A stretch of 64,000 nt of DNA, from the NCBI GenBank assembly GCA_039908345.1, contig JAMOBD010000007.1:14743-78742 (forward strand). The letters are read 5' to 3'. This DNA comes from Magnetospirillum sp. WYHS-4. Its GTDB lineage: Bacteria; Pseudomonadota; Alphaproteobacteria; Rhodospirillales; GLO-3. The notes below the pieces were generated by a model that saw only the letters and a list, made by a program, of their open reading frames with translations, was not told where the DNA came from and did no database searches. Below, in pieces: positions 53,418 to 56,962 of the stretch; the stretch's first letter is position 1; every line of letters starts with the position of its first letter. The position numbers and the translations under genes were made by a program.

Positions 53418-53741
53418 TCAGGAGGACGCGGGCTTGGCCTGGTCCTCCTGGGGGGCTGCGGCGGGCGACGGCGGCGCCTTGCCGCCGGTCTGGGCGATCT
53501 TGGCCGCGGCCACCGCCGCCGCCATTCCGCCCAGGTTCTGCAGTTGCTGCAGGCCGGCGGTGGTGGCCCCCTGCGCCATGGTGGCCCCTTGCGCCTGTGC
53601 CGCCACCGCGTTCTCGTAGAGCAACGAGGTGGAATGGGCGAAGGATTGGTACAGCGCCGCCATGGCCATGGCCGGCGCAAGCGCCAAGTTCGCCGGATCC
53701 ACGTCGGTGGCCGGCGTCGTCGATACGGAAGTATCCGCCAT
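53418..53741 (-). CDS. RebB/killing-trait-family protein, divergent member (reb-like 1)
   Basis: 107 aa. It keeps the central block APAMAMAALYQSFAHSTSLLYENAVAAQ but lacks the N-terminal NxQITD box. It is transcribed divergently from the other eight. Confidence 0.7.
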   Translation of the reverse strand: MADTSVSTTPATDVDPANLALAPAMAMAALYQSFAHSTSLLYENAVAAQAQGATMAQGATTAGLQQLQNLGGMAAAVAAAKIAQTGGKAPPSPAAAPQEDQAKPASS

Positions 53742-53974
53742 TGTCGGTCTCCATCAATAGATGTTGCACAAGCCGGCGGCGACCGAGGCGCGGCCGAAGT
53801 CATCGATGGCGGACCGATGCCGGCATAGCCATTCTGCCACACAACCCTTCCGGAATCGATCCTCATCACAAACCGGGGGCTGCAACGTCATTGGAGGGAG
53901 CACCGCCCGCTGCCCCCCTTTCGGGCCCGTGGCGCGGAAACGTCGAGGCAGAAATCCGAAAGAGGAGATCAGCA

Positions 53975-54298
53975 ATGGCTATTCCCACCCCCGTCAACGG
54001 CCAGATCACGGATTCGGTGACCCAGGCCAACGTCAAGGTCTTGGGCGACGCCCCGGCCATGGCCATGGGCGCCATCTACCAGTCCCTGTCCCATTCGACG
54101 GGCATCCTGTTCGAGAACGCGGTGAGCGCCCAGCAGCAGCTCGGCATCGCCGCCCAGGCGGCCACCAACCAGGGCGTCATCCAGATCTACAGCATCGACA
54201 CCATGGCCGACGCCGTGGCGACCGGCAAGATCGCCAGCAGCGACGTCCCCGACAACATGCTGTCCCTGCTCAGCGCCCTGAAGGCGGTCGGCGGCTGA
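53975..54298 (+). CDS. RebB/killing-trait-family protein (reb-like 2, class I)
   Basis: This is the last 107 aa of track ORF 53597..54298. The ATG is preceded by AGAGGAG. MAIPTPVNGQITDSVTQANVKVLGDAPAMAMGAIYQSLSHSTGILFENAVSAQQQ... Confidence 0.88.
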   Translation: MAIPTPVNGQITDSVTQANVKVLGDAPAMAMGAIYQSLSHSTGILFENAVSAQQQLGIAAQAATNQGVIQIYSIDTMADAVATGKIASSDVPDNMLSLLSALKAVGG

Positions 54299-54363
54299 CG
54301 GCATGACTGCGGCCGCCGGGTCCCGGCGGCCGTCAACGGAAGCGATCCTGAAGGAGAAAGACG

Positions 54364-54699
54364 ATGGCGGACGATACTCCGGTCAACGGCCAGATCACCG
54401 ATGCGGTCACCCAGGCGAACGTCAAGGTCCTGGGCGATGCCCCGGCGATGGCCATGGGCGCCATTTTCCAGGCGCTCGCCCATTCGACGGGCATCCTCTA
54501 CGAGAACGCGGTCGGCGCCCAGCAGCAGCTCGGCATCGCCGCCCAAGCGGCCACCAACCAGGGCGTCATTCAGATCTATAGTGTCGACACCATGGCCGGC
54601 GCGGCGGCCACCAGCAAGATCGCCAGCAGCGACGTGCCGAACAACATGTTGTCGTTGCTGTCGAGCCTCAAGGCGGTTTCCAGCAAGCCTGTCACCTGA
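54364..54699 (+). CDS. RebB/killing-trait-family protein (reb-like 3, class I)
   Basis: 111 aa, SD GAAGGAGAA. About 85% identical to reb-like 2 by manual count (16 differences in 107 aligned positions). Confidence 0.88.
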   Translation: MADDTPVNGQITDAVTQANVKVLGDAPAMAMGAIFQALAHSTGILYENAVGAQQQLGIAAQAATNQGVIQIYSVDTMAGAAATSKIASSDVPNNMLSLLSSLKAVSSKPVT

Positions 54700-54838
54700 G
54701 GGCCGCCAAGGCCTCCAGGGGACCCGGGAACGCCGGCCCGCCGCGAGGCGCGGGCGGGTCGGCAGCCCGGGTCCGGCCGCTTCCCGAAGCGGCATTCGCG
54801 ATCGCCGATGAGCCGCGCCGTTCGTCAGGAGACAGCCC

Positions 54839-55174
54839 ATGTTCCCTCCCCGCGATGCCGAAGCGCCATCCCAGACCCAGACGGCCCACGCGGGCCCGCA
54901 GGACGACGAGGACGACGAGGCCCCCTGCCAGCCGATGCCCAACCAGATCGTAGCGCCGCAGATCACCGATGCCATCACCCAGGCCAACGTCACCAGTCTG
55001 GGCAGCGGCCCGGCGATTTCCGTGGTCCAGTCCTACCTGTCGATGTCGCAGGCCCAAGGCGTGCTGTTCGCCAACATGGTGTCCAACCAGCAGCAGCTCG
55101 CCATCGCCAGCCACGCCACCACCGTCGAGGCGGTGTCCAAGATCCTGAACCTGGGCGGCGGTTCCAGGAAATGA
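54839..55174 (+). CDS. RebB/killing-trait-family protein with acidic N-terminal extension (reb-like 4, class III)
   Basis: 111 aa, SD AGGAGA 6 nt upstream. A 35-aa extension (…QDDEDDEAPCQP) precedes IVAPQITDAITQANVTSLGSGPAISVVQSYLSMSQAQGVLFANMV. Confidence 0.8.
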   Translation: MFPPRDAEAPSQTQTAHAGPQDDEDDEAPCQPMPNQIVAPQITDAITQANVTSLGSGPAISVVQSYLSMSQAQGVLFANMVSNQQQLAIASHATTVEAVSKILNLGGGSRK

Positions 55175-55191
55175 AGGGATAGGAGGTTTCC

Positions 55192-55563
55192 ATGAGCGTG
55201 CCCAACATCGTCCAGCCCCAGGTCACCGATGCGGTCACCCAGGCCAACGTCACGACCCTGGGCAACGGCGCGGCGGTTTCGACGACCCAAAGCATCCTGG
55301 CCCTTTCCCAGGCCCAGGGCACCCTGTTCGCCAACATGGTCGGCGGCCAGCAGAGCCAGGCCATCGCCGCGCTCGCCACGGTGATGCGGGGCGTGGAACA
55401 GACCCTCGGCGGTGGCGGGAACGAAGCCGACGCCGGCATGCGCCAGGCACTGGTTTCCATCAACAAGACCATCGAGAACGTCGCCGCCCAGTCGGCGGCC
55501 AGCCGCGATTTCCTGAAGAAGATCGAGGGGGTGGCCGAATCCATCTCCATGAAGATCAAGTAG
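55192..55563 (+). CDS. RebB/killing-trait-family protein with extended C-terminus (reb-like 5, class III)
   Basis: 123 aa, SD TAGGAGG. IVQPQVTDAVTQANVTTLGNGAAVSTTQSILALSQAQGTLFANMV, then a unique about 50-aa tail. Confidence 0.8.
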   Translation: MSVPNIVQPQVTDAVTQANVTTLGNGAAVSTTQSILALSQAQGTLFANMVGGQQSQAIAALATVMRGVEQTLGGGGNEADAGMRQALVSINKTIENVAAQSAASRDFLKKIEGVAESISMKIK

Positions 55564-55581
55564 GCGCGAAAGGCGACGGCC

Positions 55582-55803
55582 ATGCAGGTCAACGAACAGA
55601 TCACCGACGCCGTCACCCAGACCAACGTCAAGGTCCTGGGGGAATCGCCGGCCCACGCGCTGGCCATCGCCTACCAGGCCATGTCCCACGCCATGGGCTT
55701 GGCTATGGAAAACGCCACCCAGACCCAGGGGGGACTTCAGCAGGTGGCCAATTCGGCGGCGTCCACCCTTTGCTCGATGATTATCAAGGCGGGCGCCGCC
55801 TGA
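55582..55803 (+). CDS. RebB/killing-trait-family protein, short (reb-like 6, class II)
   Basis: 73 aa. MQVNEQITDAVTQTNVKVLGESPAHALAIAYQAMSHAMGLAMENATQTQGGLQQV. Confidence 0.85.
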   Translation: MQVNEQITDAVTQTNVKVLGESPAHALAIAYQAMSHAMGLAMENATQTQGGLQQVANSAASTLCSMIIKAGAA

Positions 55804-55881
55804 ATCGATTTCACAGACTCCGGGCGACCGGCGTCATAGAGAAGGGCGGTATCCGCCCGGACAAGGACAGGAGAGAGAGCG

Positions 55882-56205
55882 ATGGCTATTCCGACGCCGG
55901 TCAACGGTCAGATTTCCGACTCGGTTTCCCAAGCCAACGTGGCGGTCCTGGGCAACGCCCCCGCCCAGGCCATGGGCACCGTCTACCAGAGCATGGCCCA
56001 TTCGACGAGCATTCTCTACGAGAACTCGGTCATGGCCCAGAAGCATGCGGCGATCGCCGCCCAGGCGGCCACCAACCAGGGCATCATCCAGATCTACAGC
56101 GTCAACTCGATGGCCGCCGCGGTCGCCACCCAGAAGGTCGCGACCAGCAACACCCCCGACTTCATGATGGCGTTGCTGGTCGCGCTCGCCGCCTTGAAGA
56201 AGTAG
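55882..56205 (+). CDS. RebB/killing-trait-family protein (reb-like 7, class I)
   Basis: 107 aa, SD CAGGAGAG. MAIPTPVNGQISDSVSQANVAVLGNAPAQAMGTVYQSMAHSTSILYENSV...QIYSVNSMAAAVAT. Confidence 0.88.
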   Translation: MAIPTPVNGQISDSVSQANVAVLGNAPAQAMGTVYQSMAHSTSILYENSVMAQKHAAIAAQAATNQGIIQIYSVNSMAAAVATQKVATSNTPDFMMALLVALAALKK

Positions 56206-56261
56206 ACTAGGCTCCAGGACAGGGACCCGGACCGGGACGAAAAGACCGACGGGGCTGAATC

Positions 56262-56528
56262 ATGGCGGACGTCACATCAGTCAACACGCAGGTCACCGAC
56301 GCGGTCACCCAGACCAACGTCAAGGTGGTGGCCGAAGCCCCGGCGCAGGCGCTGGGACTGCTCTACCAGACCATGGCGCATTCGATGAGTCTCGCCATGC
56401 AGAACTCGGTCCAGGCCCAGGGCGGCCTGCAGCAGATCGGCAACGCCATCACGTCCAGCGCCGTGCGCATGATCCTCGAGGCGTCGGGCGGCGGCATGGG
56501 CGGCGGGTCCACACCGCCCAAGACCTGA
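56262..56528 (+). CDS. RebB/killing-trait-family protein (reb-like 8, class II)
   Basis: 88 aa. MADVTSVNTQVTDAVTQTNVKVVAEAPAQALGLLYQTMAHSMSLAMQNSVQAQGGLQQI. Confidence 0.85.
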   Translation: MADVTSVNTQVTDAVTQTNVKVVAEAPAQALGLLYQTMAHSMSLAMQNSVQAQGGLQQIGNAITSSAVRMILEASGGGMGGGSTPPKT

Positions 56529-56557
56529 TATCTTTCCCTTAGGCGCGGAGGCCGAGC

Positions 56558-56962
56558 ATGCCCGACGACAATCCCAATCCCGCTCCCGCACCGGCGCCGG
56601 CAGCGCCGCAAGGGACCAGCCTGACCACGGTCAACCCCCAGATTCTCGACGCCGTGACCAAGTCCAACACGGCGGTGCTGGGCGCGGCCAAGCAGGAAGG
56701 CTCGGCGGTCGCCCACCAGAAAGTCGCCCAGGCGGCGGCGCTGGCGGTCCAGGACGGCACCGACCAGCTGCGCAACATCATGACCATCGGCATGACCACC
56801 ATCGGTATCTGCATGAAGCTGATGGTCGAACAGAAGACCACCACCCCCTATTCGGACATCATCACCCAGGCCAACACCGCCATGGATGCCGCACAGGCGC
56901 GTTTCGCCGCCATCGGCGCCTCGGCCGGGACCATCGTTTCGAACTTCCCCAGCGGTTCCTGA
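56558..56962 (+). CDS. distant RebB-like protein with Pro/Ala-rich N-terminus (reb-like 9)
   Basis: 134 aa, SD GGAGG. Only TTVNPQILDAVTKSNTAVLGAA retains the family N-box; the remainder is divergent. Last gene before a strong terminator. Confidence 0.65.
   Translation: MPDDNPNPAPAPAPAAPQGTSLTTVNPQILDAVTKSNTAVLGAAKQEGSAVAHQKVAQAAALAVQDGTDQLRNIMTIGMTTIGICMKLMVEQKTTTPYSDIITQANTAMDAAQARFAAIGASAGTIVSNFPSGS

Follow-up and report, generated by a model that had tools for sequence, protein, structure and literature searches.

Could a run of small, mutually similar genes in an uncultured magnetotactic bacterium encode R-bodies, and if so, what would switch them on? The question is raised by a 64,000-nt stretch of DNA (hereafter the window) from contig JAMOBD010000007.1 of the metagenome-assembled genome (MAG) of Magnetospirillum sp. 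WYHS-4, an uncultured magnetotactic spirillum that has been proposed as a new alphaproteobacterial genus (PMC12724286). At positions 53418-56962 of the window, nine small open reading frames (ORFs) of 73-134 amino acids, named here R1-R9 in order, are packed within 3.5 kb with intergenic gaps of 17-233 bp; R1 lies on the minus strand and R2-R9 on the plus strand. The original prediction had read these ORFs as an array of RebB-type (killing-trait) paralogs with one divergently transcribed member and a hairpin at either boundary, and in these respects the array proved to be as described: all nine ORFs appear in the ORF listing, R1 is the divergent member and both hairpins fold. The locus is a genuine, intact reb cluster, of typical size for its lineage and recognisable from existing public annotation. 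We further consider it likely that this chromosomal reb cluster belongs to the sigma-factor-linked type, which is widespread among Rhodospirillales-like Alphaproteobacteria, and that it forms pH-triggered R-bodies under the control of P0148, a sigma factor encoded elsewhere in the same MAG.

The translations of R1-R9 are exact matches to the NCBI proteins MEO5336054.1-MEO5336062.1 of the WYHS-4 MAG, of which the first eight are labelled 'RebB family R body protein' and the last, R9, 'hypothetical protein'. This division recurs in the profile search that had been suggested for all nine products. R1-R8 score 40-101 bits against the Pfam family PF11747 (RebB, 'killing trait'; curated cut-off 24 bits), and R9 falls below the cut-off at 17 bits. 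When the alignment of R9 orthologs was compared with the core Reb alignment, however, the two matched across the whole domain (hhalign probability 97%, E 1e-10), and R9 is therefore best described as a distant Reb homolog rather than a Pfam-threshold member of the family. It has a Pro-rich N-terminus and an extra C-terminal helix, and it resembles the long 'distant Reb homologs' and the 'secondary' groups of published surveys. NCBIfam gave only sub-threshold chance matches and no Reb model match for the array proteins, and a profile built from all nine found no further Reb ORF in the 64 kb.

The Reb signature has been defined by the motifs QITD, K-x3-D/E, NAV and QQQ, together with a scarcity of cysteine and aromatic residues (Dorr et al. 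2026, PMC13430693). All four motifs align in R2 and R3, R4-R8 have Q[IV][TS]D along with part of the remaining set, the QITD position reads PATD in R1 and QILD in R9, and no array protein contains more than one cysteine. The shared motifs quoted in the original prediction are visible in the same alignment. The long terminal extensions that it pointed out are likewise real, comprising an acidic N-terminal stretch of about 30 amino acids in R4, a C-terminal one of about 50 in R5 and additions at both ends of R9, to which the Pro-rich C-terminus of R1 can be added. The genes themselves look intact. A Shine-Dalgarno sequence precedes most of them, including the long start of R4 (AGGAG), and the G+C content at third codon positions (GC3) is 0.87-0.92 for R1, R3, R4, R5, R7 and R9, equal to or above that of neighbouring core genes; the 90-codon floor of the GC3 scan leaves out R6 and R8, and R2 is merged there into a longer ORF. 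Overall GC content of the array is host-like (0.63-0.70), and neither the ORF listing nor the GC3 scan disclosed an unassigned ORF of coding-like composition inside it.

We compared the array with 73 metagenome loci carrying an R2-like gene, whose lead subunit is 78-91% identical to R2; 38 of these arrays are complete within the fetched DNA. The complete arrays hold 6-15 Reb-like ORFs, with a mode of 8 (six ORFs in 6 arrays, seven in 3, eight in 14, nine in 5, ten in 8, twelve in 1 and fifteen in 1), and 15 of the 38 have at least nine. Twelve Reb-like ORFs are found in Tistlia consotensis (FZNU01000002); the loci of Nisaea acidiphila (CP102480) and of a JGI contig both comprise six Pfam-positive Reb genes, an R9-like ORF and a gene for a sigma factor. 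In an earlier survey the number of Reb homologs ranged from 1 to 9 per genome, Rhodospirillum centenum having six and Marinomonas nine (PMC3583457), and a recent one found clusters of three or more reb genes in 471 taxa (PMC13430693). Nine copies are thus normal for this cluster type, and the idea of an unusually expanded set has to be given up. Two of the metagenome loci, L138 (445-10536) and L143 (6945-14478), contain 15 Reb-like ORFs in which the whole array pattern occurs twice in succession, as would result from duplication of an entire module rather than of single genes.

The order of the genes is conserved as well. With ORFs typed by best match, 50+ related arrays show two to five A-type genes, one or two C-type genes (marked by a QAQG motif), a short R6, an A-like R7, a short R8 and R9, and the window has the commonest eight-gene order (A, A, C, C, R6, R7, R8, R9) plus the extra paralog R1, the only opposite-strand member in the arrays compared. 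R2 is about 90% identical to homologs in Nisaea, Magnetovibrio, Kordiimonas, Thalassospira and Tistlia, and R3 shares 88% identity with the Nisaea gene in second position. Identity to relatives falls to 45-77% for R4-R9: 61% between R4 and the third gene of L081, 65-69% between R6 and the fourth gene in relatives, 71% between R7 and the fifth gene of the Nisaea array and 73-77% between R8 and the sixth gene in relatives. Tandem C-type pairs such as R4-R5 are common, and R9 orthologs are the terminal gene of 41 related arrays. R2 is at least 90% identical to Thalassospira RebB, whereas RibE of the two organisms is only about 65% identical, and the contrast between R2/R3 and R4-R9 appears to fit differing structural constraints better than recent wholesale transfer.

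What might control such an array is suggested by its relatives. A gene for a factor resembling sigma-70 and extracytoplasmic function (ECF) sigma factors (Pfam r2 and r4) adjoins almost every related array with enough flanking DNA, usually at about 0.05-3 kb, and is the sole non-Reb neighbour that recurs across lineages; one related array, L092, has no sigma gene within its flanks. That sigma factors lie near some reb clusters has already been noted in published work. Nearly all loci also have in common, upstream of the first reb gene, the sequence TCACAA followed after about 14 nt by CGTC. Written as TCACA-N-CGTC, this motif occurs in the reb loci at 238 sites with a spacer of 15 nt, 39 with 16, one with 17 and none with 14. 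The background in 1.3 Mb of unrelated ribE loci is 2-3 per Mb-strand per spacer (1.9 for spacer 16), an enrichment of more than 100-fold. The motif stands upstream of 139 of 185 head A-type genes, 44 of 54 R7-position genes and 27 of 89 C-type genes, of none of the 145 genes of R6, R8 or R9 type, and also upstream of the sigma genes themselves. Because of this distribution, and given the co-occurrence of sigma gene and array, the sequences argue for an auto-regulated sigma factor driving several transcription units, and TCACA-N15/16-CGTC is likely to be the promoter of the reb-linked sigma factor. We found no earlier statement of this promoter or of the transcription-unit layout in the reb literature examined.

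The window contains exactly three matches to the motif, all on the plus strand and all at the array (P_left, P_R2 and P_R7; Table 1). P_R2 is the only spacer-15 match in the 64 kb, and its position weight matrix score of 28.0 exceeds the median of 188 sites in related arrays. The R7-position motif with spacer 16 is found in the closest arrays, L125 and L132, too. For P_left, the chance of a match on the plus strand of the 189-bp gap in which it lies is about 4e-4 at the spacer-16 background. When the intergenic regions of the window were compared at the DNA level with related loci, nothing was shared but the promoter motif plus 26 nt in the R2 leader, and a scan detected no sigma-70 consensus promoter in the array. 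The same MAG encodes, on another contig of 22.5 kb, the 241-amino-acid sigma factor P0148, which is the sixth-best match to the L125 sigma factor among 5.8 billion proteins and, at 223 bits against the reb-sigma profile, scores like the array-adjacent sigma factors. The original prediction was correct that no regulator lies inside the array; it missed the linked sigma factor and the promoter motif for it within the window.

Table 1. Reb genes, candidate promoters and RNA structures in the array region; positions are those of the window.
Feature	Position	Strand	Description
P_left	53324..53348	+	TCACAAGAGGGCGCGCTCAGGCGTC; spacer 16; between ribE start (53228) and R1 stop; predicted role
hairpin	53361..53389	both	GC-rich, about -25 kcal/mol, z -2.7; terminator-like after R1 on the minus strand, 5'-proximal after P_left on the plus strand
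R1	53418..53741	-	inverted, divergent A-type Reb, 107 aa; Pfam RebB 46.6 bits; MEO5336054.1
P_R2	53866..53889	+	TCACAA-N14-CGTC (spacer 15), 85 nt upstream of R2 ATG
R2	53975..54298	+	A-type Reb, 107 aa, putative major subunit; Pfam 101 bits
R3	54364..54699	+	second A-type Reb, 111 aa; Pfam 96 bits
R3-R4 intergenic	54700..54838	+	long GC hairpins, -84.6 kcal/mol, z -2.8
R4	54839..55174	+	C-type Reb (QAQG motif), 111 aa; Pfam 59 bits; gene model as MEO5336057.1
R5	55192..55563	+	second C-type Reb, 123 aa; Pfam 40 bits
R6	55582..55803	+	short Reb, 73 aa; Pfam 74 bits
P_R7	55811..55835	+	spacer-16 motif, 46 nt upstream of R7 ATG; small 5' hairpin 55844-55858 follows
R7	55882..56205	+	third A-like Reb, 107 aa, heads R7-R8-R9 sub-operon; Pfam 81 bits
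R8	56262..56528	+	short Reb, 88 aa, Gly-rich tail; Pfam 82.5 bits
R9	56558..56962	+	distant Reb homolog, 134 aa; Pfam 17 bits; last gene of array
terminator	56987..57012	both	strong bidirectional intrinsic, -33 to -35 kcal/mol, T-runs on both strands; between R9 (+) and DUF4167 gene (-)

Taken together with what is known of R-bodies, these data suggest how the array could work. The sigma factor P0148 would switch on two transcription units, R2-R6 and R7-R9. The highly conserved A-type proteins R2 and R3, perhaps with R7, would polymerise into the ribbon, R2 and R3 being by analogy the best candidates for major subunits, and R4, R5, R6, R8 and R9 could act as minor components or assembly factors in the way of Caedibacter RebD and RebC. 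The major components of type 51 R-bodies are RebA and RebB, with RebD as a minor one; RebC does not become part of the structure, but assembly depends on it to stay on pathway (10.64898/2026.05.21.725848). An earlier study describes R-bodies as ribbons that are coiled at cytoplasmic pH and become long needles at low pH (10.1101/029587); by the same token, the ribbon of WYHS-4 would be expected to extend at low pH, for example in the food vacuole of a grazer, and to rupture membranes.

Several observations weigh against the model of a P0148-controlled R-body cluster. The sigma gene does not stand beside the array, as none was found in the window even at E <= 10, and the contig that carries P0148 is tied to the organism by MAG binning alone. 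R3 and R4 are without the promoter motifs that many relatives have, and the window has no homolog of the accessory ORFs that follow the L081 and L082 arrays and precede the L086 array. On the protein side, the subunit roles are assigned by analogy only, a sequence search of the PDB with the Reb profile returned no solved relative, and the AlphaFold2 model of R9, from a 17-sequence alignment, places helices at residues 27-92 and 99-128 with low confidence (predicted local distance difference test score, pLDDT, 57). Finally, nothing in the literature searched links R-bodies to Magnetospirillum or to magnetotactic bacteria, and none have been seen in WYHS-4.

Some of these points could be turned into a different account: when the ribD-ribE junction was broken by rearrangement (see below), the array would have lost its connection to the sigma gene and the accessory genes, and what is left would be a silent or decaying relic that no longer makes R-bodies. 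Such decay would fit the absence from the window of a sigma gene that adjoins nearly all related arrays, the presence of only two in-array promoter motifs against 4-8 in relatives, and the state of R1, which is inverted, has lost QITD and has no ortholog. A decaying array would not, however, be expected to retain nine intact ORFs with high GC3 and mostly good Shine-Dalgarno sequences, an R2 still at least 90% identical to its orthologs, or a P_R2 that outscores the typical related site; moreover, the sigma ortholog P0148 is present in the MAG, and L092 shows that a related array can also be without a sigma gene in its flanks. We therefore regard a relic as unlikely. We give still less weight, as a very improbable alternative, to the view that these Reb homologs serve another purpose, whether by forming some other polymer in the cytoplasm or by acting on the linked sigma factor as its partners or modulators. 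It has been raised for the Reb-domain genes beside ECF237 sigma factors in Bacteroidetes (10.1101/2019.12.11.873521), and most reb clusters have never been tested experimentally. But the A-type sequences of the window have all the diagnostic motifs (QITD, K-x3-D, NAV, QQQ; PMC13430693), R-bodies have been observed in Reb-carrying Rhodospirillum centenum, Marinomonas, Acidovorax, Azorhizobium and P. aeruginosa (including PMC3583457), and many paralogs with promoters of their own fit bulk structural proteins.

How the array came to its present place is a separate matter. To its left lie ribE-ribBA-ribH-nusB-thiL on the minus strand, and to its right DUF4167, a PGPGW-like ORF, ilvE, MarR and OmpR genes; the genes that flank the array directly are core genes and not mobility genes. 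The rib-nusB-thiL block is conserved in 80 related species, whose RibE is at best 72% identical; no Reb gene occurs within 10 kb of ribE in any of them, and the array is thus absent from the equivalent site. Instead, ribD adjoins ribE in 76 of the 80, within glyA-nrdR-ribD-ribE. Since the window holds no RibD or GlyA homolog, and nrdR is likewise missing, the array sits at a broken ribD|ribE junction, which leaves the ribE-ribBA-ribH-nusB-thiL block separated from its conserved upstream partners. Insertion of the array between the ribE and ilvE blocks, as originally proposed, is plausible, although the marks of a clean insertion are lacking: the window contains no tRNA, the two array flanks share no repeat of 8 nt or more, and neither GC nor GC3 shifts at the array. 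It is therefore quite possible, though we do not favour it, that the array was never inserted as a discrete island and that the left or the right block was joined to it by a larger chromosomal rearrangement in the lineage; the missing ribD, nrdR and glyA would be explained in this way, and in none of the 80 relatives do DUF4167 and ilvE lie close to ribE. The sharp boundaries of the array, marked by a promoter motif to the left and a terminator to the right, speak rather for insertion of a unit. So does the setting of related arrays, which varies widely (leuCD/asd/rplS in Nisaea and Tistlia, an FAD oxidase in L125); the reb cluster thus does move as a unit.

R1 is the most unusual member of the array. 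It keeps the central part of the Reb domain in spite of the degenerate QITD, and has no ortholog among 1.84 billion representatives by HMMER (self score 198.7 bits; the next, to generic Reb proteins, 60.8 bits), and a word-indexed search of 5.8 billion proteins returned only R1 itself. The ribosome-binding-site and start contexts of R1 and R2 are near-identical (13/16) and inverted relative to each other, and this similarity is all that was found by way of inverted repeats marking the breakpoints of an R1 inversion. There is no reb promoter motif on the minus strand before R1. P_left, by contrast, points into the 3' end of R1 from about 70 nt, much like the usual promoter-to-gene distance (median 80 nt). 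The simplest reading of these sequences is that R1 was once a third head A-type gene, underwent inversion in place and then diverged fast. Any transcription from P_left would run antisense to R1. This arrangement could in principle work as a convergent-transcription switch, in which R1, expressed from a housekeeping promoter, caps or inhibits Reb polymerisation until the sigma factor fires, an idea that we hold to be a long shot. Equally doubtful is its second half, that transcription from P_left would then pass antisense across R1 into R2-R9 and so turn R1 off and the structural genes on. If true, such a switch would give a magnetotactic bacterium that is not known to make R-bodies a built-in safety catch for a self-damaging polymer.

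Predicted RNA structures accompany the promoters and two of the gaps between genes. A GC-rich 5' hairpin follows both P_left and P_R7 and folds better than shuffled sequence, and the R2 leader gives no such signal (z -0.17). The terminator beyond R9 was confirmed by folding; a general terminator scan performed at chance level and missed it. The strong structures between R3 and R4, like a smaller 11-bp hairpin in the R2-R3 gap (54309-54333), may serve to set subunit ratios, either as attenuators within the operon or as sites of RNA processing, and it is speculative that the R3-R4 structures lower expression of the minor genes downstream. No Rfam family, including an FMN riboswitch before ribE, was detected between 48 and 62 kb at E <= 1.

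Among known systems, the closest to the window are the sigma-linked alphaproteobacterial clusters of Nisaea acidiphila, Tistlia consotensis, Thalassospira spp. and Magnetovibrio spp. Their order is the same (A, A, C, C, R6, A', R8, R9), gene by gene they are 45-91% identical to the window array, the same motif precedes head and R7-position genes, and an R9-type gene comes last. They differ in that the sigma gene is adjacent and not on another contig, in that the window has the extra inverted orphan R1 and fewer internal promoters, and in that acidic or low-complexity accessory ORFs, of which the window has no homologs, lie beside some arrays. Going by published descriptions, these clusters probably correspond to the 'Group 2' synteny type of Raymann et al. 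2013 and to the group 2/3/S4 type of Dorr et al. 2026. Clusters of the Raymann Group 2 kind include hypothetical proteins of about 205-220 amino acids (HP2.1/HP2.2) and a regulator that binds cyclic nucleoside monophosphate (cNMP; HP2.4).

The type 51 operon of Caedibacter taeniospiralis (rebA, rebB, rebC and rebD on pKAP298) is like the window array a cluster of small homologous PF11747 proteins, and by analogy the two could share a division into major and minor or assembly components and a pH-triggered extension. The Caedibacter operon has three homologs plus RebC on a plasmid, whereas the window has nine chromosomal genes for which we propose sigma-factor control. A counterpart of RebC could not be identified in the window; in the 2026 survey RebC represents no other sequences (PMC13430693). 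The closest parallel for the proposed control is the cluster of P. aeruginosa PA14 (rebP1, rebP2, rebD, rapA, rcgA, fecI2), in which expression of rebP1P2 depends on the cluster-specific sigma factor FecI2 (PMC8322103), itself auto-regulated (PMC4362757). That cluster has a sigma factor and a transcription factor inside it and far fewer Reb paralogs, in contrast to the window array with no regulator inside. Rhodospirillum centenum, another member of the Rhodospirillales, with six Reb copies, has been observed to form R-bodies (PMC3583457).

Seen against its class, then, the locus is ordinary, with modest variations: the sigma factor is encoded elsewhere, R1 is an inverted orphan with a promoter motif facing it, internal promoters are fewer, the host is magnetotactic and the rib junction is broken. 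With it, an uncultured magnetotactic spirillum joins the organisms with full R-body potential, which fits the idea of R-bodies as a widespread defence against grazers with acid vacuoles. More generally useful may be the by-product of the comparison: TCACA-N15/16-CGTC, a sharply defined candidate for the promoter read by the reb-linked sigma factor, together with a layout in which head A-type genes and the R7-R8-R9 unit have promoters of their own and R6, R8 and R9 individually never do. Promoter and layout could guide heterologous expression and engineering of multi-subunit R-bodies. Reb-type sigma factors and RebB proteins are also encoded by Magnetovibrio spp., including M. blakemorei (P0022, P0070, P0074, P0158, P0170, P0173), and R-body potential may recur among magnetotactic Alphaproteobacteria.

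A number of further observations concern the sigma factors and the surroundings of the arrays. The reb-linked sigma factors P0148, P0147, L125:6787-7548(-) and L086:6556-7770 have long, low-complexity N-terminal extensions that repeat the pattern P-x-E/V-I-I/L-A-x-A-A/V-G (in P0148, for example, EILAQAAG, LEILARAAG and VEVIARSVG). No anti-sigma gene is evident beside these sigma factors, and the extension may be a built-in regulatory region. The ECF237 sigma group of Bacteroidetes, which is also linked to Reb domains, was set aside as belonging to a different lineage. Upstream of the sigma gene in 14-15 marine loci, as at L086:3901-6296, are genes for low-complexity proteins of 584 and 213 amino acids without a Pfam match. 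These too are preceded by TCACA-N15-CGTC (e.g., L086 3778-3801), and because of this shared motif the two proteins are probably part of the regulon and are candidates for cargo or accessory proteins. An OmpR/histidine-kinase pair lies downstream of the array in the window and in 17 marine loci; we judged it coincidental, since both families are generic and the 17 loci, from their shared neighbours, look like one lineage.

In the left flank, the longest ribE ORF runs from a GTG at 53327 (52635-53327, minus strand, 230 amino acids). Homologs begin MFTGIITD, which corresponds to the ATG at 53228 and a protein of 197 amino acids, and the extra 33 codons, which overlap P_left at bases 53324-53327, are probably untranslated. 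The PGPGW-like ORF between ilvE and the DUF4167 gene (57703-57978, minus strand) encodes a membrane protein of 91 amino acids with a score of 20.9 bits, a little short of the Pfam cut-off. A gene for a membrane H+-pyrophosphatase occupies 46469-48571 on the minus strand, upstream of the thiL-nusB-rib block.

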